From positions 1-64,000 of IMG/VR virus record IMGVR_UViG_3300020045_014031: a DNA stretch of 64,000 nt; one strand, given 5' to 3'. The position numbers and the translations under genes were made by a program. Origin of the DNA: a virus. Position 1 is the stretch's first letter. Each line of letters starts with the position of its first letter. Under the pieces are notes generated by a model, which had not been told where the DNA came from, searched no databases, and saw only the letters and a list, made by a program, of their open reading frames with translations. Of the stretch, positions 273 to 63,998 are shown in pieces.

Positions 273-608
273 ATGGAAGCTATACAATATATTGCTGAAT
301 TATGGAATAATACAACAGACTTAAATATATCTGGTGTAAGTCTCCTTTTAAAAAACAAAGTAAGAAAGAATATTACTCTTAATTTAGAAGAAAAAGTATT
401 AGAATTATTTGATTTTAATAAACCAATTGTATTAGATACAATAGCTAATACAACTATATCTGTTTCTGATACAGATAAGTACATAAATAAAAAATGTACT
501 CGTGTAGGATACACAGAAACGTGGGATATAATAAAAATAAAATTTGATGATAATAAACAATACTTAGTAAATATTATTTCTTTACAAAGTAACAAATTTA
601 CTGAATGA
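273..608 (+). CDS. hypothetical protein
   Basis: 111-aa ORF co-directional with neighbours, A-rich leader. Confidence 0.7.
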   Translation: MEAIQYIAELWNNTTDLNISGVSLLLKNKVRKNITLNLEEKVLELFDFNKPIVLDTIANTTISVSDTDKYINKKCTRVGYTETWDIIKIKFDDNKQYLVNIISLQSNKFTE

Positions 609-651
609 GCCTTCTAAAATAATAAGGGTAAAACTTAAACAAATAAATACA

Positions 652-4847: not shown

Positions 4848-4960
4848 TTTCCTTTATTTTTAGAAGGCTCATACATCACATTTGAGCCTTCTAAAATAAT
4901 AAATCAACTAATTTAATTAACTTTACAAATATTATTTAACAACACAAAACAATTACTAAC

Positions 4961-10867: not shown

Positions 10868-11095
10868 ATGTGGAATTTAATAAAACAATTTTTAATTAGT
10901 TCAATAGAAGCTAATAAAGAAGTAATAAAACACTGTAAGAAAAATCAAGACTATATTAATTTTATGTTAGAAAGAAAACATACAGATTTACATTATGCAA
11001 TAACAGAAGAAAAACTAAGAGAAGATAATAATTTTACTAAATTAGGTTATTATGTTGTATCAAAACAAAATGTTGAAAAATACATAAAACAATGA
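10868..11095 (+). CDS. hypothetical protein
   Basis: 75-aa ORF overlapping polB start. Confidence 0.65.
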   Translation: MWNLIKQFLISSIEANKEVIKHCKKNQDYINFMLERKHTDLHYAITEEKLREDNNFTKLGYYVVSKQNVEKYIKQ

Positions 11096-14063
11096 AAGTT
11101 GAAGTAGCTGATATAGAAACATTTCCTTCTTTCTTTTGTATATGTTTTATTAACTTTCATACAAAAGAAAGAATATCATTTAGAATAAGTACACATAAAA
11201 ATCAAATTAAAGAATTATATGCTTATTTATTAGAAAACAAAAAAAATAAAGACTACTATTTAATATCTTTTAACGGTAATAGTTATGATTGGATAATAGT
11301 AAATTACTTATTTATTAATTACTATATGTTATCTAAATTAACAGTAATAGATATTAATGAAAGACTTTATTTAATATCACAAAATATAATAAGTAGTCAA
11401 AATACTAACAGTTTTCATTATAGCGAATTTAAAAAATATACTTATAATTTACCTTTTCAATCAATTGACTTAGCTGATTTCTGGGCAAAACTAACAATAA
11501 GAAATAAGAAATTATCTTTAAAGTTTTTTGCTGTAAGTTTAGATTTAGATATTATAGAGTGTCCTATATCATGGACAGAAAAATATTTAACTAAAGAACA
11601 AGAAGATATAGTATTAGAATATTGTTTTAATGATACAGAAGTAACTCATGCTTTAGCTTTAGCTCTAAGAGAACAAATAAATTTTAGATTAAAATTAAAA
11701 CAGCAAAAAGGATATGATTGTTTAAGTTGGTCAGGTGTTAAAATTGGTTTAGAATCACTAATAAAAGATTTAGCTATAACAAATAAAATAGATGAAAAAG
11801 TTATTAGAGATATGAGAACACATAGAAACAGTGTTAGATTATCTGATATTATTTTACCTACAATTAAATTTGAAACTCCTCCGACGGGTAATCATTGGAA
11901 AGTTAAAGCTAAGTCTTCAAAAAAAGGAGAAAATAAGTTTATTGACTGTTTTAACACCTTTTCAGACCTTCTCATTCACTTAAAGACTCTTACAGTCAAA
12001 GACACCAAATCAATTAATTGTCGTGTATTCTTCAAGGATATGATTTATGACATTAAAAGCGGAGGTTTGCATTCTTACCATGATAGCGAATTAAGATTTA
12101 GAGAAGAAGATAAACTTTATATTGATGAAGACGTAAACAAAACACTACTTGCGTCTTAACCCTCTTAACTGCTGGAAACCCTATTAGAAATCTAAGGGCA
12201 ATCAGCATCGAGCCGTACATACGGAACGTTCAGAGACTATCGAAAACACTTGTGCCAACAAGGAAGTGAGTAGAGTACATTTTTTAAATAAAAAATGGAA
12301 ACTGAGGGCAATTTCTTAAAAAAGGATTTTTATTTTGATTTAGGGTAATAACTTCGTACCTTTAGGGTAATAGAACTTAAATCAACAGTTAAATGAATGC
12401 TATTCAATTTAAAGGTATATCAGGTATATACTGTATAAAAAACAAACAAAATAACAAATGTTATATTGGTCAATCAAAAAATATTTATTTACATATAAAA
12501 CAACATATAACAGCATTAAACACTTGTAATAAAAAACAAGAAAATGAAAAGTTAATTGAAGATTGGAAAATATACGGTAAAGAAAATTTTGAATGTTTAT
12601 TATTAGAGGAATTTAGTAAAGAAGATTATAAATACAATACAACAGATATTGAATCTTTGTATATGGATGAGTATGATTCAATTGAAAACGGTTATAACTT
12701 AAGAAAAGATGGTTCATCAGGAATGATAACATATTCTTCAACTTCAATAAAATTAAGTATTGCAAGTAAAAAAAGATTTGAAAATCCTGACGAAAGAGTT
12801 AAACTAACAAATGGATTAGCAAAATATAAAGAAGAAAATCTTGATTGGAAAGAAAAAATGAGTAAAGCCGTATCAAAAGCTAAAATGATTTATAATTTTG
12901 AACAGTATGATAAACAAATGAATTTAATAAAAGTTTGGAATAGTATAGAAGATATTATTAAAGAAAATCCAGAATACAAATGGCAAAATATATATTCTGT
13001 ATGTAATGGTTATAAACCAACAATATACGGTTTTATATGGAAAAAGAAATTGAAGATATAGTCCGACACTCTTAGTAATAAGAGATTAACAGTAAGAAGC
13101 AGCTACTATCCAACTTTAGGAGCAGAACAAAGTTTTGTACCTTATCACTTTATTAAATTAGGTTTAGCAAACATACTAAAAAGAGATAAAACTGATAGAA
13201 TAAAAGATAAAAAAGAAGGAAGAATGTTAGAAGCAGAGTTAAAGAAACTTAAAATGAATGGAGGTTTCTACGGTAATACTAACAATGCTTATAGTTGTAT
13301 GTTTGATTGGTTATGTACATTACAAATAACATTAAACGGTCAATTATTTTTATTAATGAATGTAGAAATGCAAACAAGAAATAAAGGTATTGTAGTTGAT
13401 ATGTGTAACACCGATGGAATAAGTTACTATTTAGATAAAACAGAAAAAGAATATTTTGATAAAACAAATAAAGAATGGGAAAAAATAACTAAAACAGAAT
13501 TAGAATACGTTAATTATGAATTAGTTATTAAATCATCTATTAATGATTATTTAGCTTTTTATTATGATAAAGAAGGTAAAATAAAAATTAAAGAAAAAGG
13601 TTTTTATGTTACAAAACCTTTACTTGATATGAGTAAAGAATTTTTAGTAATACCTAAAGTGATACAAAAGTATTTTTTACATAAGTATTTTAAAAATGAA
13701 GAAATAAATATAGAACAAGAAGTTAAAAAACACTCTAATATTTATGATTTTTGTTCTTCAAGTAAAATTGATAAAGATTATCAAGTAATTTACAATGGTG
13801 AAAAAGTACAACAGTTAAATAGATATTATGTATCTAAAAAAGGTTCTTATCTTTACAAAAAGAAAAAAGAAAAAATAGAGTTAGAATCTGTACTTAAAAA
13901 TACAAAAGTAATTATCCTAAACAATAAAACAGAAGAAATAAACGATGAAAGAAATATTTTTGAAATTGATTATAAATACTACATTAATGCTGTACAAGAA
14001 CACATTAACAAATATAATAATGATGTTAGTATAGATACTAAAGGACAGTTTAACTTATTTTAA
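11092..14063 (+). CDS. polB: family B DNA polymerase, spliced (exons 11092-12134 and 13097-14063, 669 aa)
   Basis: Exonuclease DIET, FNGNSYD, YCFND; splicing restores DEDVSSYYP; KLKMNGGFYG and NTDG motifs in exon 2. Confidence 0.92.
12334..12372 (+). promoter_or_regulatory. putative internal promoter of the intron endonuclease gene with 12-bp direct repeat
   Basis: TTTG-N19-TACCTTTA; TTTAGGGTAATA at 12339 and 12361. Confidence 0.45.
12393..13061 (+). CDS. intron-encoded GIY-YIG homing endonuclease with NUMOD1-like C-terminus
   Basis: SGIYCI...YIGQS; QYDKQMNLIKVWNS...CNG...YGFIWK; stop lies in intron S element. Confidence 0.9.
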   Translation: MNAIQFKGISGIYCIKNKQNNKCYIGQSKNIYLHIKQHITALNTCNKKQENEKLIEDWKIYGKENFECLLLEEFSKEDYKYNTTDIESLYMDEYDSIENGYNLRKDGSSGMITYSSTSIKLSIASKKRFENPDERVKLTNGLAKYKEENLDWKEKMSKAVSKAKMIYNFEQYDKQMNLIKVWNSIEDIIKENPEYKWQNIYSVCNGYKPTIYGFIWKKKLKI

Positions 14064-14064: not shown

Positions 14065-14442
14065 ATGAAGTTACAATTTGAATTATTTAATGAAGAAAAC
14101 AAAAGTAAAGTAAAAGAAAAAGTTAAATATGAGCCTTCTAAAATAATAGAGGATAAAATCAATTGGCTTGAACAAAAAATAAAATACACAAACGATACCA
14201 ATAAGTATACATGGTATGGGACTTTTACAGATAAACAAGAAATTGAAAAAGGTTTAATAGGAGAAAACTATTTTATAACTATTAATAATGCTACATGGTT
14301 AGAAGCAAGAAAATTTATGCTCAAAAAATTTCAAACTAAATTTAAAGAAGTTTTAAGGTATGAAGAGATGAATTTTAAAGGTAAACAAGAATATTTATTT
14401 ATAGATTTAACAAAAAAACAAGATTTAACATGGGCTTTGTAA
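14065..14442 (+). CDS. hypothetical protein
   Basis: 125-aa ORF. Confidence 0.7.
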   Translation: MKLQFELFNEENKSKVKEKVKYEPSKIIEDKINWLEQKIKYTNDTNKYTWYGTFTDKQEIEKGLIGENYFITINNATWLEARKFMLKKFQTKFKEVLRYEEMNFKGKQEYLFIDLTKKQDLTWAL

Positions 14443-14684: not shown

Positions 14685-14953
14685 GTTATACAGAAGAACA
14701 ATTCGATAATGATGAATCATTAATAGATAAAGTATTAGCTCAACATCTTAATTTATATTCTAAAATATTACAAAAATATAAAGAAGTTGAAGGTTTTGGT
14801 TTTGAAATATGTAAAACTAATACTGGAAGTACTGTATTTGTAGAGTATAATTATGAAGAACAATACTTTGAAATGTTTATAGAGGAAAAACCTTTATGTA
14901 AATTTACTTTAGAAAGCGATTTTAACCGTTTAATACAACTTTTAACAAAATGA
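14681..14953 (+). CDS. hypothetical protein
   Basis: ATGA overlaps. Confidence 0.7.
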   Translation: MSYTEEQFDNDESLIDKVLAQHLNLYSKILQKYKEVEGFGFEICKTNTGSTVFVEYNYEEQYFEMFIEEKPLCKFTLESDFNRLIQLLTK

Positions 14954-15279
14954 AAATATTTAATATTATTTTATCCTCTTTTCTAACTTTATTTAGGAAA
15001 GAGGATGTTTTATTTTACCATAAACCAATAAATGATTCAGTATATGAATCAAATGGTGTTAAGATAAATTATACAAAATATGCTGATGTAATGAAACAAA
15101 AGCAAAAAGCTATTGATGGAGAATTAAAAGAAACAGAAAATAAAGTTAATTTTTCTGGTAACAGTAGAGTTAATTCTTATCAGTTAAGCCAACTCAAAGA
15201 ACTTATTTCTAAAGAAAATCCACCTTTATTTTTAGAAGGCGTAGAAGCAGTAATTAAAATTTTAAACATTAAAATCTAA
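14950..15279 (+). CDS. hypothetical protein
   Basis: 109-aa ORF. Confidence 0.7.
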   Translation: MKIFNIILSSFLTLFRKEDVLFYHKPINDSVYESNGVKINYTKYADVMKQKQKAIDGELKETENKVNFSGNSRVNSYQLSQLKELISKENPPLFLEGVEAVIKILNIKI

Positions 15280-15285: not shown

Positions 15286-16857
15286 ATGTATGATTTAAAC
15301 ACAGGTTTTGCTAAAAAAAAGCAACCAATTGTTCTAAATGAACAACAAGAAGAAGCTGTAAAACTATTTAAAGAGTTTACAAGTTCAGCTAATTTATCAT
15401 TTAATCTTAGTGGCTTTTCTGGTACAGGTAAAACCACTACTGCAAGTTTCTTTCTACAACATTTAAGAACATTAGGAAAACATTTTATGGTATGTAGTCC
15501 TACACATAAAGCAAATAAAGTAATTAAAAATGCACTAAATATTGGTGCAGAAATTAAAACTATTGCAAGTTTATTTGGTAATAGATTTAATATTTTAAGT
15601 AAAAAATGGGAGTTTTGTGCTGTTTCAGAAGATTATTTACCGCCTAATATTACATTATTAGTAGATGAATGTGGTATGATAAACGATGAAACATTTATCT
15701 GTATGTTAGAAACTTGTAAACAAAGAAATATTCAATTAGTATTTATGGGTGATGAAGCACAAATTCCACCTATTAACTCTAAAACAATTTCTTTAAGTTT
15801 TACAGATTGTGATGTAAAATATACACTTACAAAGTTAATGAGACAAAAACCGTCTAATCCTTTATGCGAAATTTACACTTCAATTAGAGAAAACTTATTA
15901 GCTAATCATAGATTTGTAACATCAATAAATGAAGAAACAGGAGAAGGTTTAGAAATAGTAAATTCATTAGGTTTATTTGAAAGTGTAATTGAAGAAATGC
16001 TTTCTAAAGAAGAATTTAAAAAAGATAGTTCTTTCTGTAAAATTGCAGCTTATACTAATAATAGAGTATATAATTACAATAGAATTGCAAGAAAAGCTTT
16101 ATTAGAAGATGATTTAATTCCTTTTCAATTAGGTGAAATATTAACAGGTTATAACCAGATAGCAACAGAAGCTATTGTACAAAATAGCCAAGATTATGTT
16201 ATTTCAAAACATAACGGTATTGTAAACCATAGAATAAACTTTCTTGATGCCAGTTCAAAAGACAAAAAAGGAGTTTACAAGGAAAAAAGATTTGAATTAA
16301 AATCTTATGAAATATCCATTAAAGAAGTTGAGCAAACATCTTCATATTCCATGAAGATAAATATACCTTTAATTGATGATGAGTATAATTTTAATTTCTT
16401 TCATAATCTTTACAAAATAGCTATGGATTTTAATACAGAAAAAAGAAGTGATGTAAAAAAGACATTGTATAAAGCTATGGTAAATATTTTTAAAAATGTT
16501 CAATTATCTGATAGTTTGTTTATGTATGACGGTATTTGCCAATCTTTAACAAAACTAAAGAAAGAAAATAGAGAATTATTTATTCAAGATAGTTTCGGTT
16601 ATTCTAAATTTGACCAAATTATGAGTAATGGATTAGGTTATATATTAGAGAAAAACATAGATTATGGATATGCTGTAACTGCACATAAAGTACAAGGTAG
16701 TACATATCAAAATGTGTTAGTAGATTTAATTGATATTAATAATCCAGTAACTAATAAACAAATTAATAAAGAAGGTCAGCCTTTTTGTCTTGAAAGAAAT
16801 ACTTTAAAGTATGTAGCTTTATCAAGATGTAAACATAAAACAATTGCTTTACAATGA
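15286..16857 (+). CDS. SF1B helicase (Dda/RecD-like)
   Basis: GFSGTGKT, SPTHKA, VDECGM, GDEAQIPP, YGYAVTAHKVQGSTY, YVALSR. Confidence 0.92.
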   Translation: MYDLNTGFAKKKQPIVLNEQQEEAVKLFKEFTSSANLSFNLSGFSGTGKTTTASFFLQHLRTLGKHFMVCSPTHKANKVIKNALNIGAEIKTIASLFGNRFNILSKKWEFCAVSEDYLPPNITLLVDECGMINDETFICMLETCKQRNIQLVFMGDEAQIPPINSKTISLSFTDCDVKYTLTKLMRQKPSNPLCEIYTSIRENLLANHRFVTSINEETGEGLEIVNSLGLFESVIEEMLSKEEFKKDSSFCKIAAYTNNRVYNYNRIARKALLEDDLIPFQLGEILTGYNQIATEAIVQNSQDYVISKHNGIVNHRINFLDASSKDKKGVYKEKRFELKSYEISIKEVEQTSSYSMKINIPLIDDEYNFNFFHNLYKIAMDFNTEKRSDVKKTLYKAMVNIFKNVQLSDSLFMYDGICQSLTKLKKENRELFIQDSFGYSKFDQIMSNGLGYILEKNIDYGYAVTAHKVQGSTYQNVLVDLIDINNPVTNKQINKEGQPFCLERNTLKYVALSRCKHKTIALQ

Positions 16858-49086: not shown

Positions 49087-49315
49087 TTTTAATTTGATTT
49101 AAAAATATAACTAATTGTTTTTGAGATAAAAAAGAAATATTTGAGCCTTCTAAAATAAATGAGGTTAAGAATAAATTATCTAATTCTTCATTATCTACTT
49201 GTTTCTTTGAAGCACTTATTGATTTATATTTATCTGAAATATGTTTATTAAACATAGTATTTGATAAATTAAGTAAAGCGTTTTCTTTTTTATCACATAT
49301 AAATTTATCATTCAT
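49073..49315 (-). CDS. hypothetical virion-module protein
   Basis: 80-aa ORF. Confidence 0.6.
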   Translation of the reverse strand: MNDKFICDKKENALLNLSNTMFNKHISDKYKSISASKKQVDNEELDNLFLTSFILEGSNISFLSQKQLVIFLNQIKNEHF

Positions 49316-49321: not shown

Positions 49322-50071
49322 TTATATTTTAGAAGGCTCTAACTCAGCATCCAAAGATTCAATAATAGAAGCAATTTTTAACATATCATTACTTTTTTTT
49401 AAACCTTCAATTGCTTTATATTTTAAAACAATGTCTCTTAGCTTTTGATTATTTTTATAAATCTCACTTTTATTAACAGAATCAACACTACCATTATTAT
49501 ACTCAATTGATAAACCTAACGTTTCTGTTATTTTTTGGTTTAACTGTAATGTATGAACTATATAATTAGAATTAGTATAACCAACATAAAGGCTTATAGT
49601 ATCGTTTATAAGTGTATCTTCTTTTAATTGAAGTACATTTTCATAACTTCTTTTTTTATCAATGTGATAAATATTATCGTTAATTAATACTACACTATAT
49701 TTTTCTAATTCGTAAACAGGAAAAGGAAGTATAATTTTTGACTGTTGTAATTCTACTGGAGTAGAATTAAATAAATTAAAAGATGAGTAAATAACTTCAA
49801 TCACACCACTTTTAATTTTTAATAAGTAAGAATCTACATCTGTTTTACCTAATGAAAAAGAATTAACAATTACTTCATCGTCATTATTAAAAAAATTATC
49901 AATATTTGGAGAACTTAATTCAGTAAGTATAATTTTATCTTTTTCTTCATTAAGCATTCCTATTTCTAAAATTATTTTATCAGGAAGAACACTAACATTA
50001 TAACTATTATCTTTTAGTGTTATAGTAGTTCCATCATTGTAAATTTTTGTTAATTTTATATTTGGTTTCAT
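49322..50071 (-). CDS. putative tail protein
   Basis: 249 aa, position after ejection proteins as in crAss-like gene order. Confidence 0.5.
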   Translation of the reverse strand: MKPNIKLTKIYNDGTTITLKDNSYNVSVLPDKIILEIGMLNEEKDKIILTELSSPNIDNFFNNDDEVIVNSFSLGKTDVDSYLLKIKSGVIEVIYSSFNLFNSTPVELQQSKIILPFPVYELEKYSVVLINDNIYHIDKKRSYENVLQLKEDTLINDTISLYVGYTNSNYIVHTLQLNQKITETLGLSIEYNNGSVDSVNKSEIYKNNQKLRDIVLKYKAIEGLKKSNDMLKIASIIESLDAELEPSKI

Positions 50072-53100: not shown

Positions 53101-53747
53101 TCAGAATCTCTAATATCATCACCTACTAAATCTTTTATTCTTAACCAAAAATCCATTAAAAAAGAAAGTGATTTGATTTCATCAACACTTGTAGTTTTAA
53201 AATTATAATTACTTACAATATTATTAAAGTAATTATAATGTTTATTTGCTACAATCATTAAATTTACTAATGGATTATTAATATTACCTAAAGAATTAAT
53301 ATCACTTGCTAAATCATCTAATCTAAGTTGTCTTGATTTATTAAATAAACTACTATCTTTCTCTTGAAATATGTTATTTCTAATTATATTTAACTCAGAT
53401 ATTACTTTATTTAAAGGTTGTGTATTAACAATACTTGGAGCAAAAAAAGTATTACTATCTTCAATATCTTGAAGTATATTTACAAACTCATTATAAGAAG
53501 GTTCTTCTTTTGATTTAAGCCTTTTAAAAAATAAGGAAGAATATAGTTTAGATTTTATTCTTATAGCTTCATTTTCAGAATTTGTACTTTGAAGTATCTC
53601 TTGATATAGTTTACTATCATTCCCTTGGAAATCTTTATCAATAAAGTTTCCGTTATTTCTTGCAAAAACAAGATGTGCAAGCTCTTCTCCAAGAACTTGC
53701 ACTGTTTGTTTATAAAATTCGTTATTTTTATTTGGACAAATATTCAT
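50103..53747 (-). CDS. giant virion ejection protein (phi14:2 gp65-like position)
   Basis: 1214 aa helical, LGLNPFSA..N...G, GRLIGQFK.W, GRY.T, C-terminal hydrophobic helices. Confidence 0.75.
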   Translation of the reverse strand: MNICPNKNNEFYKQTVQVLGEELAHLVFARNNGNFIDKDFQGNDSKLYQEILQSTNSENEAIRIKSKLYSSLFFKRLKSKEEPSYNEFVNILQDIEDSNTFFAPSIVNTQPLNKVISELNIIRNNIFQEKDSSLFNKSRQLRLDDLASDINSLGNINNPLVNLMIVANKHYNYFNNIVSNYNFKTTSVDEIKSLSFLMDFWLRIKDLVGDDIRDSDDLLLIQSKFDSLSKKFKDIEIQSFIKESNIGEEIKKENLTTDISDRNVVSSFLLGSGRTANIAVQAINKFLDLAYVSKKRESNSLQDILIDIEKIVKENKIDTKDFLTVNKEGKEPDIRLIKAFTSSWMENERVLLLRKNRANDLATSKEVWKDQSLNHKVQGTVLNLKNLFIETPEGYEINKDNLELEIKSLSDKISVENKELVKYVIQEKINQQLSLLNKYFEDVKTRKEISSEEDFNKWNNINNPFLYIENLNKDKPNYLSSRKYVVSLPVLKQFWNIDFENIFKDNKKLEVYNNLSKVIDNLKSKLPANIRNRISEDFIPVVDSYLVKEGLSFQEQVKDLLTLPNFTASDNINDYKEIPINFIPEIGEHKNSANFTKDKGDFSTNLIPVLKLFGDSVYHYYYYTQIKAPVLLGQSILKNATPIQKDYKGNIVIERGKGTDKKFDKGQGLSNELTLLEETINHVMFLEKTKPEINIFSNYDVTDLSGVLAIINENKKALKNKKIYSPFTEKELNDEIELVNNVQKNINDSLSKGVFSKLNSIKNQFTKKYRGENYDSAETLYNYYLEKLDTSRQLRREGKITKEEFIQTNDLIQKRIRELNRSSIYFSKITDYLIKVRRTISLGLNPFSAGRNFVGGYFNGIVNAGQEYDSVVFTKNVGKVTSLMISNIVKDKQEAFKVFKLAQKLLVQDNVIDLQGLDEKTWFDNYGFKLMEKSEQAIRYALMISILEKEDLYTKFDNDGNWIGEKQGNNIIEQDVINNIILKIQRINDIVMGDTHSFKLINKSFVGRLIGQFKVSWMPEAFASRLEKEHYDYKLNRTIKGRYLTYSDLGFTGFLVGTLQVYKSWIFGSKDYVHLKNNKGRKITETDANNLVKNTIELSLIMSFMTLGYILRYLADDEEDDALLTFIVNQSLLIERDLTVISPSTVSEIVAGNLIPAYSVVTNLQSLIPATVKIISDDDYDFDKYLYKLGKLVPVLNIASQFKYQSEHFVDDLN

Positions 53748-53748: not shown

Positions 53749-56700
53749 TTATTTACATTTTTTAACTAACTCTCTTGCTTCTTGCATATCTTCATTACTA
53801 AATATACTTTCTGATTGACTTAATTCTAAACTTAAATTATTTTCCTCAATATCTTGCATTAACTCTATTATGTTTTGAATAGAACTTCTTAATATAGAGT
53901 TATTATTAATAGGAATTGATAAGTTATTAGCTATTTCATTTATTAACTTATTTAACCATTCAACAAATTTATCAAGTAAATTAACTTCTGTATCTAAAAA
54001 TTCTATATTATTAAGTTTTCTTTGAAAATTTACATCTGTTAAAACACCAGTAACAAATTCTCTAATATCACTCAAGTAATATAAAGATACTAATTCTTTT
54101 TTACTTAAAGTAGAATTTTGTTCTATTTCTATATATTTATTTTTTCTTTCGGTTAAATCTTTAATTTTATGAGCTTTACTATATTCTTCAACAATACTTA
54201 ACTCACTTTCTAATAAAGATTCTTTTGCTGAATTAACTAATAATTTTAGTTTTACATAAGGTAAAGAACCTTTATTTTGATTTAGATAATTTAAAGTAAC
54301 ATGATGTACTGATTCATGTAATAAATTTCTTAATAATTTAGAATTGTTATAAGCTAATTGTATTTCTGAACCATTGTAATAACTCATTCCATTTTCATTT
54401 TCTACAATAGGTATATCAGCATTTTTATCATATATAAATTGATAAAGTATATTACTTAAATCTTTAAAAGGAGTGTCGTATTTTTCAATATTATGTAATG
54501 TACTTATTAAAGATTCTTTTCTTATACTATCAATTATAATTTTATTATTTTCTAAATTTTTTATTTGTTCTTGTTTTTCTTGTTTTTGACTGATTGAATC
54601 ATTGCTTTCAAATAAAAGTAAATCTTCAATATGTAAACCTTTTTGTGTTTTATTAATAGGTATTAATGAGTTATTAAAATCATTATTATAATTGTATTCA
54701 TTAATATAATAATTACCTAAAGTATCTATTTGTAATAACTTAACATAAAAAGTTTTATCTTGGTTTTCTCTTGATTCAATTACTTCATATAAAAATGTTT
54801 TATTTACTTTATATTCTTTACCTGTTTTTTCATTCTTAACACTAACTTTACCTTTTTTATACATAAACCTTGATAATTTATCAACTTGTAACTCAATTAT
54901 AGGTTTATCAAATTTTATATTTTTAGGTATTGGTTGACCTTCTTCTGGATTATGCTGATAATACTGTCTTACAAAATAATCATCATTTAAAGAAGGTTCG
55001 TTAATTGTATTCTTTAAAAATTCACTAAAGTTATTAATAATAATAGAAGGAGGTATTAATTGAATAAATGAATTATAATTATTTATACCACCATTAACAT
55101 AAGCGTATCTTACTAAATCACTTACAAAATTTCTTATTTCTAAATTTTCTGATTCTAACAAAATATAAAACTCATTATATATTACTTGTGAATCAGCTTC
55201 TAAATCTAATGTTCTATAAACAATATAATCAGGCTCTCCTTTTTTATCTGCTATTTTTGTTTCTAACTTATTAAATAATGTGTAATTTTTATATTTTAAT
55301 TTTAAATGTTGTAATCTTAAAGCTAAACTTTCATTATCACCTAATGTAAACATTAATCTTCTTCTTTCTTTACTATTATTTTCCCAAATATTATTAGCTG
55401 AATAAACATAAGACTGATAATTTGTAAGAATATCTCTAAGTTCTTTAGGGTTTAATTCTTTATCTTTTATTGATGTTATTTGATTAATTATATTATTTAA
55501 CTTGCTGTAATTAAACATTTCAGAAAAACTATTTAAAACATCTAATGTTAAATCAACTGTCTTACCTAATTCTGTTTGACCTATTGATTCTTCGTAAAAT
55601 AATTCTCTAAAGTTATTCACATAAGGAAATCCTTTTGAAGTATCAATAACAGATAAAGAGTTAATTTTTTGTTCTTTTGCAATACCTTCTAATATATTTG
55701 TACCAAAACCTTTAGTATCAACATTAGTAGCAATCATCATTTGAAATAAATTAGTACCTATATAATCAAGAACTAAAAAAGATTTTAATAAATTATAGTT
55801 ATTTTCTGGTTCTTTTAATTCTTTAATATTACCATTATTATCTCTAACAATACCTAAGTCACTGTCTGTTAAATATACATTTTCTTTTAGTACATCATAA
55901 ATACTACTCGGTATTTCATATATTTTTTTTGAAACATTAGATTCTGAACCAAAACGTAAATCAAAATCCTCTAATGTTTTTTCATAAGCTAATTGTTTAA
56001 CATCTTTTCCTTTTGCATCATTAAAAGTATCTCTGTATGATTTTAAGTTATTAACATAACTTTTTACAATATCGTTATTAATCAATTGAGCAGAATATTC
56101 ATTACTTACAGCATTATTATCACTTTTACTGCTATCTTTTAATTGTAATAATACAACATAAGCATTAGCTGTAATATCATTAAGATTAATTTTATCTGCT
56201 GTTTGATTTTTTGCATGGTCTACTGCTTCTGATTGTGGTATTACTATATTATCAGATGTTGTTCTTCTTTGTCCATTAAAATAACTATAACCAATACCAG
56301 AAAAAGTATTTAGATTTGTATTATTTATGTTTATCCTAACATTTCCTAAATTCATATTTTTAGTTCTTTGTAATAAAGTACTAAACGTTAAATTTAATGA
56401 AAAAGTACCAACTAATCTTTTAACACCAATATTACTTACATAACTTTCTAATTGATTAACAGGATTAAACAAATCTTTTATTTGTTTATTTTTGTTTGAT
56501 TTATTTCTCATTGATACTACATCTTGTAAATCTGACATATCAAGAGGTTGCATAATTTTATCAAACATTCTTGGTGCAATTAATATATTATAAAGAGTAT
56601 CAAAATAATCATTTTTTAACTCTTCAATTCCTTCTTCATATTCTTCGTTTATCTCTCCAAATTTATTAACATTTAGATTAGTATCAAGATAATTTATAGG

Positions 56701-59700
56701 TAATTCATTTAACTGTTGTTTATAGTTTTCTAACAATTCCCTGTCTTCTTTTAGTAGCTTTACAACTTTAGAAAAAGTATTTTTCTTATTGACATCTTCT
56801 ATATATGAAACAGTAAAAGCATTATAAACTTGTTTTTTAAACTCACTATCTATATTTTTAATTTTATTATATATAGTTCTTGTTTCACCTTTATATTTTG
56901 ATTTAACTGATTCTGCTCCTATACCTGTTGTATATGTTAAATCTCTAAGGTTAGTTAAATCATCAATATTAAAAGATTCAATAATTTTTTCTAAATTTTC
57001 AGAATCCAAATCACTTTCAATAAAATAAGAAATAACTTTTTCTTTTAAATTCTTTAAGTATTTGTCAGAAGTAATTGCTTGATAATATTTTTCTATTTGT
57101 TCATTTACTTTTTTAAACTCTTCTTCTGATAATTTATTATCTTGAAGTTCTTTTTCTTGATTTTTTATTTTTTGTTTTAATAATATATAATCATTTTTTA
57201 ATTGTAAATCAGGATATTTTTTTACTGGTTTATACTTTTTTTTGTAAACATAAAGTTTATCAATATCAAAGTCACTACCCATTTGTTTTGTAATCTCAGC
57301 AGGTACATATATTATATCACCTCCTATATTAGGTAAAAACCCTACAATTTCCATAGGTAACTGTGAACTATGTGATTGGTTAGGTATCCTTGCTCCTACA
57401 AACTTTAATAGTTCTTTATTTATATCAACACTTCCTTCATTTATAAACTGATTTATATCAATTCTTTGTTCTTTATTAAAGAAGTTAAAAGGAACTAATA
57501 CTTGTGCAGGAAGTATTTTTGCTGTAAAATTATCTGAGCCTTCTAAAATAATAGAAGAATTAACTAACTGTTGGATTTGCTCATTATTTATTTTAAAAGG
57601 CTCATTTGTTTTAGATAAATCTAACTGTTCTTGTGTTAAATATATCTCTATTCCAAATTGGTCATATAACTCAGATATTACAGGTCTTAATGGTCTTAAT
57701 CTTTTATCATCCCAACCTTTAACTTTTTTAACATCATTAGGTACTTCACCTGTTTTATCCATTTTACCAATACCTAAACTTGTAATTTGAACAAATGACT
57801 TACCGTTAATTTTAACTTGAATAGCTTTTCTAACAGCAGAAGCTATTTTTGATTGTATCTGATTAGAACTTCTATTAAATAATAAAGGAATTAACATTTC
57901 ATTATTATCATCTAATTGCAACTCTAATTTTTGATTAGTTGTTAAATCAGAAGTTGTTCTAAATATATAATCTCTTAATTTTGTTTTATCAACAAAATCT
58001 TCATAAATACCTAACTCATCTTTTAATTCATCAAAAGATATATCTAACATTCTTTTACGAATATCTTCTTTAATTAAGCACATTTCCTCACCTGTTTTCT
58101 TTTCTCCTTTATATTCAAATACAGGTTCTTTAATTGAAGTTAATGTATCAAGAATTAATTTATTTAATTGAGTTACAAAAGTAATTTTTTCTTTTGTTTC
58201 ATCATAAGGTATTTCTTGCTGTATTAAAAAAGCATCAGCATTCATTACTCTCATTGATTTAACTAATGAATCACCTTCATTTTTATAAATCCAATTACCG
58301 TTAATATCAAAAGGTTCAAAAAATACTACTGGATTACCTGATTTACCTGCTGTATCTAAACTAACTTGGTCAATACCGTTTTCTTCTATTAGTTTTCTTA
58401 AATTATCTAATTCAGTACCAGAAGTTATATTAGGTATTAAAGGAATTAAAGATGATTTTACATAATGAATATAACTATATACCCTATTAACACCTAATGG
58501 AGTAAACTTTCTATCTGTTTCCACAGGTTTCATAGCATACATATAAGATAGTTCTTCTGCATTTAAAAATTCACCATCTTTCTTTTTCATTATTTGACTA
58601 TAAACTCTTGTAGGTATTCTACCGTAATCAAATAGTATATTAGCTATTCTTTTAACAGAACAAAATTGAGAAGCATCCGAAGGGTCAATTTGTCCTTCTA
58701 ACTCTCCTTTCTTGTTTTGCTTTAATCCGTAGTAATTATTTAAAAATAAATCTTTATACTCTTCTGTAAATGTATTAGGTACTTTAATTGTTATTGCTTT
58801 ATAAGTTAAACTTTGATAACTACCTGCAATCCCAGGGGCTATATCTTTAGCTAATCTTTTAGTATATTCATCATAAGTTCTATTTATAGTATCTACTATT
58901 GTATCACCTTCTTTACCTTTATAAAATAAAGCAGGGTCACCAGATGTAAACATAGCTAACGATATATTAAAAATATGTTTATTAATAGCATACTGAGATA
59001 TACTACTAATATCTTCTTTTGATATTAATTCAATAGGTAATTTATTTTTTTGAATAGAATCAAAAACATTATTAATTATAATATCACTTCTATAACTAAT
59101 TACTTTATTTATTACATCAAGATACTTTTCTATTATGTTATCGTTCTCATCAAGAATTTTATCATTAATTGTATCTTTGTCTATCCATAATAAATCTATT
59201 TCTTCTTTAGAAAATAAATTACTACCGTCTATTGACTTAATATTACTTAAAATCTCATAATTAAAATCAGGTAACAAGTAAAATATTCCTGCTCCCTTTT
59301 TAACTTGTGCTGTTACATCTAATTTATCTTTATTAACTACTCTAATATATTCGGCTTTAAATATATAAGCATATTCATTACCCATTTGACTAAAAGGTAT
59401 TTTAGGTATTCCCGAATGAAAAGGAGTTGTTTTCTTGTCAGATTTAGTTAAATCAAAATAATTAGCTGTACTTTTACCTTCATTTCTAAAGTTTTCAATT
59501 TCAGTAACTAACTGTTCTCTAAAACTCATATTATCTCTTGTAATACCTTTTTTAGATTTTTCATTCTTAATAGCTTCAAATAAACCTAACTTATACTCTT
59601 CTAAAACATTGTTATTGTTAATTACATTTCTAAAAAAGAAAGAGTTACTACTAAATAAATCTTTACTTAATGTATCCCTATAGTTTTCACCATTAATAAT

Positions 59701-61401
59701 AGGGTTTTGAATAGCTCTTAATATCTCTCTAAATTGAAAAGTAGGTAAAATATAATCATATACTTTCTTACCTTCTACTGTTGTATGAGTAGATGTAATA
59801 ATATCTGAATATTTACCTTGTAACTCACCTAAAAATCTTGCTACTTTAGTATCAGTATATAATGGATTACTAATAGTTAAAGTTGCTTCAACTTCTTCAT
59901 CTTCATTTTCATATATACTTTCTCCTCTTAAAATACTTACAATATCTGAAAATAAACCAAATGGTTCAAAATCAGTTGTAGAACCTTTTTTAAGTTTTCT
60001 CGTATATTGAAATTGAGAAATAATATCTTTATTGTATCTTGATTTCTTAAAGAAAAAACTATTATTAAATAAATCTTCTCTTGTTTGTTCTGATATTGTA
60101 AAACCTAAACCATCAATAATTTCATTAGCTAAATCAATATACTCTTGTTTAACAGCTTTTTCTTTATTAGCTTTTAATATTCTATTATATATATTATTTA
60201 CTTTTTCTTTGTTTACAAAATAATTACCGTCATTATCAAAACTAATAAAATTATCTTTTCTATCTAAAGTATTTAGTTTTTGCTCTTCTTTCCAAATAGA
60301 AAGAATTTTATTAAGATAAGAATTTCTATTTCCTTCAATAGTTACAACTTTATAAGGAGTATTTAAACCTTCTTTTTCAGCTTTATAATCTTCTGTTTTA
60401 TTAAATAAGGTAACGTATTGTTTAGCGTTTACTTTCTTTAATGCTGATACAAATTCATTTTTAATTCTATCTTCTGAATTAATTAATCTTTCACCTAATT
60501 TATAAATAGTAGGTTGATTTTTTTTATTAAAGTCAGATTGTAATATAGTTAATAATTCATCAAAAGATAAATCTAATTTATTACTTGTGATAGTTACAAC
60601 TTTTTGATAAAGCTCATCGTAGTTATATAACTTACTTAATCCAATAGAACTTATTTGAGGAACAATATTTCCATTAACATTATCATATATAGGAAGAGTT
60701 GAAAGAAACAATTTAATTCTTTTTGACATTGTTTCTTTAGGGTCACGTTCTTCACTTGCTTTATGTTCTCCTCTTACATCTGCTTCCCCTGTTTCATTGT
60801 CTTCTAACAATGATTCATTAATTCTATCAACATCAATATTTAATTTTGAATATTTATCTTTAACAAAACTTTCAATCTGTTTTCTTGAATTAATTATGTT
60901 CTCATAATCTTTTATAAAAGGTATAAAAGAATAAAATTTACTTTCTGTATTATCTTCTAAAAAAGCTTTTAAAGTATTTTTATGTATAATACTTATATTC
61001 TTAAATACAATATCAAATACATCTTCTACTTTTAATTCTTTATTATCTTCTTTTGATTTTTTAATTAGTTCTTCAAAAGACATTTTAAAAACAACTTCAA
61101 TAGAATCTTTTTGTTTTACAATATCAAAAAATTCACCTGTATAGTTACCATTTGAATCTTGTATTTCAATATTATACAATCTTCTTTCTTCATTGTTATT
61201 TGATGTAACAATAGATTTATTAATTACTTGCTCTATTGTATATCTTTTTCTTTTAAATTGTTTTATCTTTTCACTAACAGAAATAGCTCCTTCATTAGAA
61301 GGAGCTATATTTTCTGCAAACCATACTTGTTGTGCATTTTCACCATGTTCAGCAACTAATTGTCTCCAATAATCACTGTTATAATTTGGACATATTTTCA
61401 T
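53749..61401 (-). CDS. virion RNA polymerase (crAss-like two-barrel RNAP) with C-terminal zincin-like domain
   Basis: RIPNQSHSSQLPMEIVGFLP...VPAEITKQMGSDFDIDKL catalytic motif; LLHESVHHVT...EFVTG. Confidence 0.92.
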   Translation of the reverse strand: MKICPNYNSDYWRQLVAEHGENAQQVWFAENIAPSNEGAISVSEKIKQFKRKRYTIEQVINKSIVTSNNNEERRLYNIEIQDSNGNYTGEFFDIVKQKDSIEVVFKMSFEELIKKSKEDNKELKVEDVFDIVFKNISIIHKNTLKAFLEDNTESKFYSFIPFIKDYENIINSRKQIESFVKDKYSKLNIDVDRINESLLEDNETGEADVRGEHKASEERDPKETMSKRIKLFLSTLPIYDNVNGNIVPQISSIGLSKLYNYDELYQKVVTITSNKLDLSFDELLTILQSDFNKKNQPTIYKLGERLINSEDRIKNEFVSALKKVNAKQYVTLFNKTEDYKAEKEGLNTPYKVVTIEGNRNSYLNKILSIWKEEQKLNTLDRKDNFISFDNDGNYFVNKEKVNNIYNRILKANKEKAVKQEYIDLANEIIDGLGFTISEQTREDLFNNSFFFKKSRYNKDIISQFQYTRKLKKGSTTDFEPFGLFSDIVSILRGESIYENEDEEVEATLTISNPLYTDTKVARFLGELQGKYSDIITSTHTTVEGKKVYDYILPTFQFREILRAIQNPIINGENYRDTLSKDLFSSNSFFFRNVINNNNVLEEYKLGLFEAIKNEKSKKGITRDNMSFREQLVTEIENFRNEGKSTANYFDLTKSDKKTTPFHSGIPKIPFSQMGNEYAYIFKAEYIRVVNKDKLDVTAQVKKGAGIFYLLPDFNYEILSNIKSIDGSNLFSKEEIDLLWIDKDTINDKILDENDNIIEKYLDVINKVISYRSDIIINNVFDSIQKNKLPIELISKEDISSISQYAINKHIFNISLAMFTSGDPALFYKGKEGDTIVDTINRTYDEYTKRLAKDIAPGIAGSYQSLTYKAITIKVPNTFTEEYKDLFLNNYYGLKQNKKGELEGQIDPSDASQFCSVKRIANILFDYGRIPTRVYSQIMKKKDGEFLNAEELSYMYAMKPVETDRKFTPLGVNRVYSYIHYVKSSLIPLIPNITSGTELDNLRKLIEENGIDQVSLDTAGKSGNPVVFFEPFDINGNWIYKNEGDSLVKSMRVMNADAFLIQQEIPYDETKEKITFVTQLNKLILDTLTSIKEPVFEYKGEKKTGEEMCLIKEDIRKRMLDISFDELKDELGIYEDFVDKTKLRDYIFRTTSDLTTNQKLELQLDDNNEMLIPLLFNRSSNQIQSKIASAVRKAIQVKINGKSFVQITSLGIGKMDKTGEVPNDVKKVKGWDDKRLRPLRPVISELYDQFGIEIYLTQEQLDLSKTNEPFKINNEQIQQLVNSSIILEGSDNFTAKILPAQVLVPFNFFNKEQRIDINQFINEGSVDINKELLKFVGARIPNQSHSSQLPMEIVGFLPNIGGDIIYVPAEITKQMGSDFDIDKLYVYKKKYKPVKKYPDLQLKNDYILLKQKIKNQEKELQDNKLSEEEFKKVNEQIEKYYQAITSDKYLKNLKEKVISYFIESDLDSENLEKIIESFNIDDLTNLRDLTYTTGIGAESVKSKYKGETRTIYNKIKNIDSEFKKQVYNAFTVSYIEDVNKKNTFSKVVKLLKEDRELLENYKQQLNELPINYLDTNLNVNKFGEINEEYEEGIEELKNDYFDTLYNILIAPRMFDKIMQPLDMSDLQDVVSMRNKSNKNKQIKDLFNPVNQLESYVSNIGVKRLVGTFSLNLTFSTLLQRTKNMNLGNVRININNTNLNTFSGIGYSYFNGQRRTTSDNIVIPQSEAVDHAKNQTADKINLNDITANAYVVLLQLKDSSKSDNNAVSNEYSAQLINNDIVKSYVNNLKSYRDTFNDAKGKDVKQLAYEKTLEDFDLRFGSESNVSKKIYEIPSSIYDVLKENVYLTDSDLGIVRDNNGNIKELKEPENNYNLLKSFLVLDYIGTNLFQMMIATNVDTKGFGTNILEGIAKEQKINSLSVIDTSKGFPYVNNFRELFYEESIGQTELGKTVDLTLDVLNSFSEMFNYSKLNNIINQITSIKDKELNPKELRDILTNYQSYVYSANNIWENNSKERRRLMFTLGDNESLALRLQHLKLKYKNYTLFNKLETKIADKKGEPDYIVYRTLDLEADSQVIYNEFYILLESENLEIRNFVSDLVRYAYVNGGINNYNSFIQLIPPSIIINNFSEFLKNTINEPSLNDDYFVRQYYQHNPEEGQPIPKNIKFDKPIIELQVDKLSRFMYKKGKVSVKNEKTGKEYKVNKTFLYEVIESRENQDKTFYVKLLQIDTLGNYYINEYNYNNDFNNSLIPINKTQKGLHIEDLLLFESNDSISQKQEKQEQIKNLENNKIIIDSIRKESLISTLHNIEKYDTPFKDLSNILYQFIYDKNADIPIVENENGMSYYNGSEIQLAYNNSKLLRNLLHESVHHVTLNYLNQNKGSLPYVKLKLLVNSAKESLLESELSIVEEYSKAHKIKDLTERKNKYIEIEQNSTLSKKELVSLYYLSDIREFVTGVLTDVNFQRKLNNIEFLDTEVNLLDKFVEWLNKLINEIANNLSIPINNNSILRSSIQNIIELMQDIEENNLSLELSQSESIFSNEDMQEARELVKKCK

Positions 61402-63998
61402 TATTCTGTACAGATTTTATTAAATAATTTATTTGCATCTTCCATAGATTGTACTTTAGATGCTTCTTCTAAATATTTGTTTTTAGAATTTTCTGATAAT
61501 TCATCATTCAATATAACATTTATATTTATAAATTCATAAACAAAGTTCTTATACTTTTCAACAGAATTTTTAAATGATTCTAAAAAAGAAGAATTGTTTT
61601 TGTAATCATCATTAATTGAAAATACAGAATCTAAAACATCTTCGTCTTCTTCATTAGATTTCTCACCTATATTTTTAGAAGGCTCATTTGTTTGTTCAAT
61701 AACTTTATAATTATAATCAAAATTAACCACAAAATCTTTAGTATAAACCAATTCTTTTTGTCCTTTGTTATTTATTATAAAATTATCTTTATTTACATCA
61801 AAATTAGTTTCTAAATCATTCTTAATATAATCATAATAAGTAAGGTTATTTCCTCCTTTAATTACAATTTCGTTATTTTCTAATACAGGATATTTAAAAC
61901 CTTTTGTTTGACCATTATTTAAAAAATCATTATCAAGAGTAAATAGTTTATTCAATAATTCTGTTTCTAAATTATCTATAAATTTTTTAAACCCTTGTTT
62001 ATCTAAATTATAAGAACTATTACTATTAGCAGGTTTTAAAGCAAATAAATTAACTCCTTTTTTACCGTTAGCATCTGACATATAAATTAAAGAAGGTAAT
62101 TTATTTTCTCTTCTTGTTTTTATATCGTTAATATAATTTACTGTTGTAAAATACTGTTGAATAAATTTATTAAAATTAGTTAATATATCATAGTTTAATA
62201 CTAAATCATTAGATATTTTATTTAATTTATCTAATGATATTTTATCTCCTTCAACAGTACCTTTATAGTATAAAGTAAATAATTCTTTTAAAGTATTTAT
62301 TTTATCTTTACTAAGTGTTTTAATTGTTAAAGGATATACTTTAGTTAAACCATTAATATCAGGATAACTTAAAACAGCAAGTAGTTTTTTATTTATTGTA
62401 CCATTTATTTCACTTTCAATTGAAGGGTATAAAGTACCATTAACCAATGAATGAACTTTAACTCTACTATCATTATTATCTATAATACCTTCTAAAGATT
62501 GTCTTGTTTTTTGAGTAATTGCTCTACCACCTGATTTTCTTTTAAGATTGGTTTTAATAACTACATTAGAATTAGTAGAAAACAGTTCTCTTATTTTTTT
62601 AATTTTTTGTTCGTTATAATTTCTATAATTAATAGAAATTATAACACCTTCTTGTGTTACAATACTTTCTTTATCTAATTTTAAATAACTTATTTGATTT
62701 AATACATCAAATAATTCATTTAGTATTTTTTGATTTTTACCTTCTGTATTATAATCTTTAATGTTGTTTTTACTATCTTTAATGTACGTAGTATTAATAA
62801 ATTCAATAGTTGGTAAATAACCAATTTTTTTGTCTGAGCCTTCTAAAAATATAGCTATCGGAAGCTCATCATTAATTCCTACTTGATAGTTTTTATCAAT
62901 TCTTAATTCTAATGAAGTACCCTTTTTTAACTTAGCTGTTTCTAAAGCATCTGCTGTTAAAGAATTATCATCTCTTATTTGACCATATTGAAATCTAAAC
63001 ATATCTAAAGTAAAAGGTTCTTCATACATTTCTTCTTCTTTTACTTCATTGTTAAAATTATCAATAATTTCTTCTGTTGTTTGTTCTTGTGTTTCTTCAA
63101 TAAAAGAGGGTTCTTCATTAATAGTTTTAGAAATAACAAGTTCCTCAACTTTATCTTTAACTTCTTCTTGATTTTGTTTAGCTAAAGTTATAGCATAACT
63201 TTCTTCAATTTTATTTTTAAATTCTGTAAAAGACTTTCTTAGTTCTTTTTTTATTTTTTTACTATCAAACATTAAATCTAATACTTCATCTGAAAAAGAA
63301 AATAATCTTAATTGTAATTTATATTTTTCTTCACCTGATAACTCTTTTATATTTTTATGAATATAGTCTAATAAAGTACTTGATAGATATTCTAAATTGT
63401 AATCACCAGAATCAAGAGAAGACTTAATAAAATTAAATACAAATGTTAAAATTCTATCATTTTTGTTTTCTTTAGAACCAAATGTACTTTTTATCTTATT
63501 TTCTAATTCTTGTATTTTTTTAGAAATAACTTTTTTCTTTTGTTCTCCTTTAGTAATTATTTCTTTTTTCCTTAATGTTTGTTTTTTAACAGGTTTTTTA
63601 ACAATAGGTTGTTCTATTAATTCTTTTAATAAATCATCATATTTAGCATTAATTTTTATAACAACAGGTTTTTTATTAAATTCATCAACTGTTTCATTTC
63701 CAGTAATTTCACTATCTAATTCTTCTTGTCTTCTTTTTTCTATATCAGCTTTTTTATCTTCTAAACTATTATTATTTTTAGTTTGTTCTGAAACAACAAC
63801 AGGTTTTTCTGATTCTTTGCTCTCTTCTGCTTCTTTCTCTTCTTTATTAATTTTACGTATTTCTTCAAGTAACTTATTATTAAAATCATTATCACTTTCT
63901 TTACCTTCTCCTTGTGGAATTTCAGACTCTTCTTGACCAAATGTTCTTAATACTTTAGGTTCTAAATCATCAGGAACTTCTATTTTTTCAACTTCTTT
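61401..63998 (-). CDS. giant virion ejection protein, 5'-truncated by window
   Basis: frame stays open from 63272 to window end; contains KKADIEKRRQEEL...INAKYD motif typical of crAss-like giant proteins. Confidence 0.8.
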   Translation of the reverse strand, partial: KEVEKIEVPDDLEPKVLRTFGQEESEIPQGEGKESDNDFNNKLLEEIRKINKEEKEAEESKESEKPVVVSEQTKNNNSLEDKKADIEKRRQEELDSEITGNETVDEFNKKPVVIKINAKYDDLLKELIEQPIVKKPVKKQTLRKKEIITKGEQKKKVISKKIQELENKIKSTFGSKENKNDRILTFVFNFIKSSLDSGDYNLEYLSSTLLDYIHKNIKELSGEEKYKLQLRLFSFSDEVLDLMFDSKKIKKELRKSFTEFKNKIEESYAITLAKQNQEEVKDKVEELVISKTINEEPSFIEETQEQTTEEIIDNFNNEVKEEEMYEEPFTLDMFRFQYGQIRDDNSLTADALETAKLKKGTSLELRIDKNYQVGINDELPIAIFLEGSDKKIGYLPTIEFINTTYIKDSKNNIKDYNTEGKNQKILNELFDVLNQISYLKLDKESIVTQEGVIISINYRNYNEQKIKKIRELFSTNSNVVIKTNLKRKSGGRAITQKTRQSLEGIIDNNDSRVKVHSLVNGTLYPSIESEINGTINKKLLAVLSYPDINGLTKVYPLTIKTLSKDKINTLKELFTLYYKGTVEGDKISLDKLNKISNDLVLNYDILTNFNKFIQQYFTTVNYINDIKTRRENKLPSLIYMSDANGKKGVNLFALKPANSNSSYNLDKQGFKKFIDNLETELLNKLFTLDNDFLNNGQTKGFKYPVLENNEIVIKGGNNLTYYDYIKNDLETNFDVNKDNFIINNKGQKELVYTKDFVVNFDYNYKVIEQTNEPSKNIGEKSNEEDEDVLDSVFSINDDYKNNSSFLESFKNSVEKYKNFVYEFININVILNDELSENSKNKYLEEASKVQSMEDANKLFNKICTE

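Follow-up and report, generated by a model that had tools for sequence, protein, structure and literature searches.

What reads an asymmetric 13-nt word, GAGCCTTCTAAAA, that recurs on both strands of a single phage genome, between genes as well as inside them, and what does it tell its reader to do? The question arises from bases 1-64000 of the 97,183-bp IMG/VR virus record IMGVR_UViG_3300020045_014031, a record that is complete by CheckV; this 64,000-nt stretch is called the window here. The genome is laid out as two convergent gene blocks, one on the + strand from about 270 to 38,814 and the other on the - strand from 96,871 down to 38,922. Judged by its sequence the phage is crAss-like and encodes a virion RNA polymerase (RNAP) with a DFDID motif, and its terminase matches solely crAss-like phages, at identities of at most 32%; megablast found no close GenBank phage, and tblastn identities likewise did not exceed 32%. 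We observe that the word is selected as DNA, that its copies follow strand and spacing rules, and that the genome encodes a protein with a primase fold. Our preferred reading, to which we assign a probability of roughly one in three, is that the word may be a strand-specific start signal on single-stranded DNA (ssDNA), marking strong priming sites of the phage's DnaG/T7 gp4-type primase.

A word selected at the level of DNA

An earlier note on this DNA had listed 14 perfect copies of GAGCCTTCTAAAA in the window, and all 14 were recovered at their positions, 9 on the + strand and 5 on the - strand. Dinucleotide shuffles predict 0.01 perfect copies in the window and base composition, evaluated by hand, gives about 0.0014, which is near the chance estimate of about 0.001 in that note, and when up to two mismatches are allowed the window holds 21 matches against 2.3 expected. 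The near copies at 15230(-), 24541(+), 25077(-), 57591(-), 28702(+) and 53517(+) make the previously reported split of 11 + and 7 - sites reproducible. The whole 97,183-bp genome contains 18 perfect copies, and a position matrix built from 25 copies of the word (the 25 sites of our first site table), applied with a threshold of 12 bits, returns 30 sites genome-wide, 17 on + and 13 on -, and none in ten Markov shuffles. A k-mer survey identified the word as the sole strongly over-represented word of the genome, by roughly 1,000-3,000 fold for 11-/12-mers. Additionally, 27 of the 29 genomic GAGCC pentamers run on as GAGCCT, so GAGCC is nearly confined to the motif, and its near-absence elsewhere may reflect avoidance of partial sites.

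The full signal is about 29 nt long and consists of (ACAAAT)GAGCCTTCTAAAA followed by five A/T, a G and purines. With the 13-mer numbered as positions 0-12, these positions are almost invariant in the 25 copies and weaker conservation extends over the 29 nt: the base before the 13-mer is T in 21 of 25 copies (ACAAAT precedes about seven), A/T fills 123 of the 125 cells at positions 13-17, 20 of 25 sites have G at position 18 and 22 of 25 have a purine at position 19, and positions 19-21 are G-rich. The five A/T with the G and purines go beyond the earlier note, as do the per-strand spacing, the opposite-strand pairs, the intergenic enrichment and the likeness to polymerase and primase sites described below.

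Nineteen of the 25 sites of the first table lie inside open reading frames (ORFs), among them those for the virion polymerase, the 1826-aa and 861-aa proteins, the SF2 helicase and the primase. Within-gene synonymous codon shuffles, which preserve every protein and the codon usage of each gene, yield a mean of 0.6 perfect in-gene copies and a maximum of 4 in 200 shuffles, compared with 12 observed, and therefore selection acts on the DNA and not on the protein, as had been proposed. The sense copies mostly encode (T N) E P S K and the antisense copies mostly I L E G S, which are the frames left open by the motif's own stops, and the encoded peptides given before (EPSK, KPSK, SSLLK, LEGS at 49143, 57536 and 62836, LEGV and EPFK) all check out. 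At 18593 and 31637, where the frame forbids TAA, the downstream A/T part alone is degraded, and therefore the DNA word and the protein compete for the same bases. The pair in the RNAP gene and the site in the primase gene sit in linkers that are variable or have a low predicted local distance difference test score (pLDDT), with no insertion relative to homologues. Intergenic DNA makes up 6.3% of the genome and holds about 8 of the 30 sites, an enrichment of about four-fold (P=5e-4).

Placement on the two strands

Same-strand gaps between sites range from 2.9 to 10.3 kb on + and from 2.6 to 11.0 kb on -, with a coefficient of variation (CV) of 0.36 on both strands, and the minimum distance between any two same-strand sites is 2.6 kb. 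Random placement matches this evenness in fewer than 1 in 50,000 trials for the + strand (P<2e-5) and with a probability of 3.6e-4 for the - strand. All 10 pairs of sites less than 1.5 kb apart are on opposite strands and none on the same strand (P=0.0012, strand-label shuffling), and all but one of the 11 - sites have a + site no farther than 1.5 kb away (P about 3e-4 to 2e-3). The geometry of the pairs is variable, with 7 convergent and 3 divergent arrangements and separations from 13 bp to 1.4 kb; merged into loci, the sites form 16 regularly spaced loci with a CV of 0.38. Relative to the genes, 17 of the 30 sites are sense and 13 antisense, which upholds the view that orientation is independent of transcription, and no site is found upstream of the first gene of either block. 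Together, the per-strand spacing, the opposite-strand pairs and the gene-blind orientation indicate that each strand separately needs something every few kb, and these strand rules point away from an orientation-blind docking site and from an mRNA signal.

Folded as single strands, close motif pairs form strong hairpins: 4858-96 has z=-7.8, 28702-27 has z=-5.8, and the motif hairpin at 38817-38875 folded together with the hairpin at 38876-38925 reaches -38 kcal/mol for 111 nt (z=-14.7). The purines after the A/T stretch pair with CCTTCT above chance (4.0 of 6 pairs vs 1.9), and the fold of single sites is no better than that of shuffled sequence (z 0.44 and 0.98). A hairpin or palindrome as the general unit was rejected, as G is favoured over A at the pairing positions and single sites are unfolded; the motif unit is a linear word, because the enrichment of G over A is needed by neither a palindrome nor a hairpin. 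We conclude that the pair hairpins are a by-product of two opposite copies sharing one scarce non-coding spot, where a secondary use is possible.

The placement of sites both between genes and inside coding sequence, as the earlier note described it, holds broadly, with corrections at two loci. In the + block, the perfect site at 607-619 (+) overlaps nothing of the upstream gene 273-608 but its stop codon, and lies 32 nt before the ATG at 652. The perfect sites at 4858-4870 (-) and 4884-4896 (+, upstream of gene 4961) are both intergenic and stand back-to-back, jointly forming a hairpin. Perfect copies follow within a 125-aa gene at 14131-14143 (+, EPSK) and within the SF2 helicase gene at 18593-18605 (+, SLLK of SSLLK), the latter being one of those with a degraded downstream A/T part; between them, a near copy with 2 mismatches (28.5 bits) is antisense in gene 14950-15279 at 15230-15242 (-, LEGV). 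The primase gene has two one-mismatch sites, one at 24541-24553 (+, KPSK), in the low-confidence linker of the model at residues about 100-123, and one antisense at 25077-25089 (-). The weak copy at 28702-28714 (+, 18.3 bits), located between gene 28436-28696 and the rIIA-like gene, and its perfect partner at 28715-28727 (-) form a hairpin with a 10-bp stem followed by a T-rich run; this pair is the second correction, since the rIIA-like gene probably begins with the ATG near 28747, which makes the pair most likely intergenic. Another perfect copy lies within a 177-aa gene at 31637-31649 (+, EPSK).

Where the two blocks converge, the perfect sites at 38821-38833 (+, 7 nt past the last + gene) and 38859-38871 (-) constitute the left and right arms of a long hairpin. 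In the - block, perfect sites are found antisense in an 80-aa gene at 49143-49155 (+, LEGS) and at the 3' end of gene 49322-50071 at 49327-49339 (-, EPSKI followed by the stop), 11 nt before the next ATG, and a weak copy of 22.3 bits is antisense in a 1214-aa gene at 53517-53529 (+). The virion RNAP gene carries a perfect antisense site at 57536-57548 (+, ILEGS), some 90 codons ahead of DFDID in a variable linker, together with its partner, a one-mismatch sense site at 57591-57603 (-, EPFK). The 1826-aa gene has a perfect sense site at 61673-61685 (-, EPSK) and a perfect antisense site at 62836-62848 (+, LEGS). A separate strong hairpin at 38876-38925, with A-runs and T-runs on its two sides, adjoins the motif hairpin at the convergence; it is probably a bidirectional terminator, and therefore the motif pair is not required for termination.

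Proposed priming sites and rival explanations

The candidate reader is the product of gene 24202-25194 (+), a putative DnaG/T7 gp4-type primase with a Toprim fold and a degenerate zinc-binding-like N-terminal domain. The gene matches PHROG 12622, DNA primase, at 9e-29, some of its homologues carry Toprim_2, and its AlphaFold model (mean pLDDT 88) has T7 gp4 primase, Aquifex DnaG, T4 gp61 and S. aureus DnaG as best PDB matches with a probability of 1.00. A DnaB-like replicative helicase (19866-21032, +; weak match) is its likely partner. A specific block followed by A/T and then purines is the layout of an initiation site for an enzyme that copies a template. Read as a template, a site would be 5'-GAGCCTT-CTA-AAAWAAWA-GR-3', in which a G+C-containing primer-encoding block is followed by the start trinucleotide, 8 nt of A/T and two purines, and the predicted primer would be about 5'-AGAAGGCUC. 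Such a primer would be unusually G+C-rich for a genome of 24% G+C, which might explain why the block is fixed. With one site every 3-11 kb per strand, whichever strand is exposed at the fork could be primed, and adjacent + and - sites might allow synthesis to start in both directions. That the primase reads the motif is something we infer, along with the register of the start trinucleotide and the sequence of the primer.

The closest known systems are the sites of T7 gp4 (5'-(G/T)2GTC-3' with an 8-nt discriminator and a '-10 element'; PMC12839067) and the trinucleotide sites of DnaG (PMC2978363). For T7 gp4, the extended primase site of recognition block, 8-nt A/T-rich 'discriminator' and '-10 element' (TA/TG/GA/GG) was shown by experiment in 2026, and about 26 strong priming sites, consolidated to 14, lie at intervals of 1-6 kb (PMC12839067). 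The word resembles these sites in its succession of a block, about 8 A/T and a purine-containing pair, in the single-stranded template on which we propose that it is read, and in its occurrence as a few dozen strong sites per phage genome, kb apart, in a phage that encodes a Toprim primase fold. Its template anatomy fits the T7 model (positions 10-17 are A/T, 18-19 are G and a purine), with a register that was picked after the fact. Unlike T7 sites, which switch strand at one origin, the sites here occupy both strands along the whole genome, and they are far sparser than ordinary trinucleotide sites.

The word is also like ssiA and ssiB of RSF1010, which are read by the RepB' primase, and like G4-type complementary-strand origins, in that these are long, sequence-specific and strand-specific signals for the priming that is proposed here; ssiA and ssiB moreover lie on opposite strands close together, as the pairs do. 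Signals of the ssi and G4 type require stem-loops and number one or two in a replicon, whereas here there are about 30 copies and single sites lack a significant fold (z 0.4-1.0). RepB' belongs to the archaeo-eukaryotic type of primase, whereas the candidate here is a Toprim primase.

Several points weigh against priming by this enzyme. The CTA register was picked after seeing the T7 model, and a two-base shift also fits loosely. Known DnaG/T7-type primases have a specific block of 3-5 nt, compared with at least 13 nearly invariant nt here, for which the family offers no precedent. The N-terminal domain of the primase (24202-24420) has a SPFRNDNKP stretch, which we take to resemble the DnaG consensus, and only two cysteines; the usual ones are mostly missing, and the domain may not bind zinc now. 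Lagging-strand priming alone leaves the co-location of + and - sites unexplained, so that an origin-like role or placement constraints are needed, and a recognition block, an A/T melting stretch and a G start fit a promoter on the other strand equally well. We nevertheless prefer the primase because the spacing is per strand, there is no sense bias, a T7/DnaG-type primase is present, and the virion RNAP transcripts of phage phi14:2 are reported to have no detectable common upstream motif. A bolder form of this idea, which we put forward tentatively, is that the clade has replaced loose trinucleotide priming by sparse, addressed initiation, with the 23-29 nt word, about every 6 kb per strand, as the sole start site; the reader would then be the primase, or the virion RNAP acting as primer maker. 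Extended primase or initiation sites are a known kind of signal, and there is a real chance that the word is something more unusual.

If the motif strand is instead taken as the non-template strand, with RNA starting from G18, the word could be a promoter-like start site of the crAss-type virion RNAP, an alternative that we regard as rather unlikely. This alternative reader is a predicted protein of 2550 aa (53749-61401, -; DFDID at residue 1377) that aligns with crAss-type virion RNA polymerases, and its RNAs would, equally doubtfully, be replication primers, R-loop origins or genome-wide transcripts and not the products of ordinary mRNA promoters. The layout of a 13-18 nt block, 5 nt of A/T, G and purines is like that of single-subunit phage RNAP promoters, and promoters of the T7 class and of P23-45 share with the word an invariant, asymmetric sequence of about 20 nt, an A/T-rich stretch, a purine start and confinement to one clade with its own polymerase. 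Opposite-strand pairs would suit bidirectional origins, and the origins of T7 and T4 are promoters. The phage packs its DFDID polymerase, phi14:2 gp66 is active on ssDNA, and P23-45 gp96, another single-chain two-barrel virion RNAP, uses a strongly conserved motif (10.1101/2022.12.01.518664). A few sense sites also stand just before genes (607, 4884, 49327, 82963). However, single-subunit RNAP promoters are located upstream of genes and co-directed with them, whereas the orientation here is gene-blind and most copies are in ORFs, including antisense copies in essential genes; the absence of a site before the first gene of either block and of a common motif upstream of the phi14:2 transcripts also speaks against a promoter, and the motif is missing from relatives whose RNAP catalytic region is well conserved. 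About as unlikely, in our estimate, are double-stranded docking sites for a phage-encoded DNA-binding protein that would organise, compact or mark the genome, for which the HU/IHF-like protein (88064-88696), the RepL-like protein (95986-96414) and a virion cargo protein are conceivable but doubtful candidates. A long, asymmetric footprint, a clade-specific word, regularly spaced loci and the harmlessness of a binding site inside genes in either orientation would all agree with docking, as would the perfect site 20 nt upstream of the HU-like gene and the weak site just upstream of the RepL-like gene. Orientation-blind sites, however, predict that half of the close pairs are on the same strand, whereas all 10 are opposite; same-strand sites avoid each other, the unfixed pair geometry argues against a defined dimer or loop, and the HU-like match, at 17 bits, is under the Pfam cut-off.

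Of the functions offered in the earlier note (organisation, ejection, packaging, nicking, recombination or decoy), our results make nicking and recombination less likely, as they do orientation-blind docking. It is very improbable that the word marks site-specific nicks made in virion DNA by the phage's HNH or GIY-YIG nuclease, even though both genes are present and a dispersed, phage-specific consensus is known from T5, phiKMV-like phages and tf (9-20 nt, about 4-14 copies, on one strand only; PMC3517423). The copy number is like that of the 14 sites of tf, a phage that also has two convergent gene blocks (PMC3517423). Unlike all of these, the word is on both strands, and four opposite-strand pairs lie 13-55 bp apart in A/T-rich DNA, where double nicking would break the genome; both nucleases, moreover, look like ordinary homing endonucleases beside split genes. 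Recombinase sites are less likely as well, as a six-frame search found no tyrosine or serine recombinase at E<=0.1. Chi-like or self-marking sites, read on one strand by a translocating host or phage helicase-nuclease and thereby protecting or labelling phage DNA whichever end the enzyme came in from, would be strand-specific, on both strands, evenly spaced and gene-independent, as observed, and a RecD-like SF1 helicase and an exonuclease are among the phage's genes. Known Chi sites measure 5-8 nt, compared with 23-29 nt here, a word of the host should abound in host genomes (see below), and this word changes within a narrow phage clade, which together leave the Chi-like explanation improbable.

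Two further families of dispersed sites share features with the word. Like the stoperators of L5 gp71 in cluster A mycobacteriophages, it is a 13-bp asymmetric site present at least two dozen times across the genome, in part within genes. Stoperators are oriented along transcription and occur in temperate phages that make a repressor; in contrast, no gene-orientation rule applies here, and we found no integrase or recombinase and no hint that the phage is temperate. Uptake signal sequences (USS) of Pasteurellaceae and DNA uptake sequences (DUS) of Neisseriaceae likewise occur in both orientations, with many in-gene copies in tolerated frames or variable segments, inverted pairs as terminator-like hairpins and an unusually even spacing. 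They are found, however, in the chromosomes of competent bacteria, roughly once per kb, whereas this word belongs to one lytic-type phage clade, and no bacterial genome was found with many copies of the 18-mer.

Several other origins were rejected. An in-frame miniature inverted-repeat transposable element (MITE) is contradicted by the RNAP linker, which has the same length in homologues without the motif, and an intrinsic terminator by the sense copies inside long essential genes and by the separate terminator hairpin beside the junction pair. A repeat or uptake signal of a sampled host was dismissed, as the 18-mer occurs only as singletons in species genomes. The motif does not contain the Bacteroidetes-type host promoter (TAnnTTTG), boxes of which are present in some intergenic regions elsewhere, and the palindromic word ATTAGCTAAT, found in two genomes, is ordinary coding sequence.

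Clade, neighbouring genes and significance

Terminase-based searches of IMG/VR and of metagenome contigs returned relatives at no more than 39% identity, and four IMG/VR crAss-like relatives (36-39% terminase identity) contain neither the word nor an analogous over-represented 11-mer. Scanning IMG/VR contigs for an inverted pair of the word gave no hits, and a 14-mer scan of IMG/VR together with a scan of five large records gave chance singletons or nothing. Closer relatives are visible through individual proteins, and the test proposed in the earlier note, whether relatives keep the motif in orthologous genes, gives, when read from proteins, a divided answer: kept at 79-95% identity, absent at 55-61%. 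Virion polymerase relatives at 84-86% identity keep the EPFK and ILEGS peptides with one E-to-V change, and these peptides are absent from virion polymerases at 61% identity or less; the RNAP segment with the motif pair is a variable linker whose length is unchanged in homologues without the motif. As to the primase, relatives at 95% and 82% identity retain KPSK, KPTK stands in its place at 79%, and it is missing at 55% or less, while the second site is lost in the 82% relative; the KPSK site is in the sole low-confidence linker of the primase model. The region is also covered by contigs from aquatic and freshwater metagenomes that are about 87-90% alike, and some of these have motif pairs whose short loops differ. 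No RNA sequencing run was listed as containing this phage, and the contigs available shared small fractions of its sampled words.

The exact 18-mer was found as 21 singletons, and as a multi-copy element in none, among 185,579 species genomes of bacteria and archaea, a set from which the host may be missing. The word therefore belongs to a narrow phage clade, which fits a phage-encoded reader with evolving specificity, and the earlier suggestion of a phage-encoded factor is probable because the word is clade-confined, is absent from distant crAss relatives and is nowhere multi-copy in species genomes. Literature searches found no description of such a signal in crAss-like phages.

Protein searches also identified SF1 and SF2 helicases, an RNase H, an exonuclease, and one gene each of the HNH and rIIA-like kinds. 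The SF1 helicase domains PF13604, PF13245 and PF05970 are also part of many homologous giant virion polymerases (3000-4400 aa); the RecD-like SF1 helicase of this phage has a gene of its own (15286-16857). Beyond the window, a RepL-like winged-helix protein is encoded at 95986-96414 near the start of the - block (PF05732, 29 bits, above the cut-off), with a weak motif copy of 16.7 bits just upstream (span 95986-96690), and a 210-aa protein at 88064-88696 has the weak HU/IHF-like domain, with a perfect motif copy in antisense orientation upstream of its start codon (span 88064-88716). A sigma factor was not found in a six-frame search, a search for a T7-like RNAP gave no match, with a control that was uninformative, and no immunity repressor was identified among the proteins scanned.

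The DNA polymerase is seemingly split (11092-14063). A 355-aa N-terminal piece at 11092-12159 matches PHROG 1252, G+C-richer non-coding segments at 12160-12392 and 13062-13223 flank a GIY-YIG/SegE-like gene at 12393-13061, and an ORF of unknown family follows at 13224-14063; the region looks like an intron with a homing endonuclease, for which Rfam gave no match at gathering score. Another intron may be present in the 225-bp G+C-richer non-coding segment at 21387-21611, between ORFs 21036-21386 and 21612-22235. Over the whole genome Rfam finds one tRNA only, and the ORF-free 867-bp stretch at 1236-2102 holds only a tRNA, tRNA-Ile(TAT), at 1920-1993. Outside the window, a Bacteroidetes-type -7 box (TATATTTG) occurs at 80173-80267, after a terminator hairpin and 42 nt before a structural gene, a hint that the host belongs to the Bacteroidota and that its polymerase uses promoters other than the motif.

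This freshwater crAss-like clade is sharply marked by the word, and the per-strand spacing rule is a simple statistic with which other phages can be searched for similar signals. Should the word serve in priming or initiation, the phage would fix the starts of its DNA synthesis in the sequence, at the cost of constrained proteins, and a crAss-family primase or virion polymerase could be tested on a defined substrate. If initiation is indeed addressed in this manner, the genome sequence itself would set the origins and the Okazaki-type fragments.

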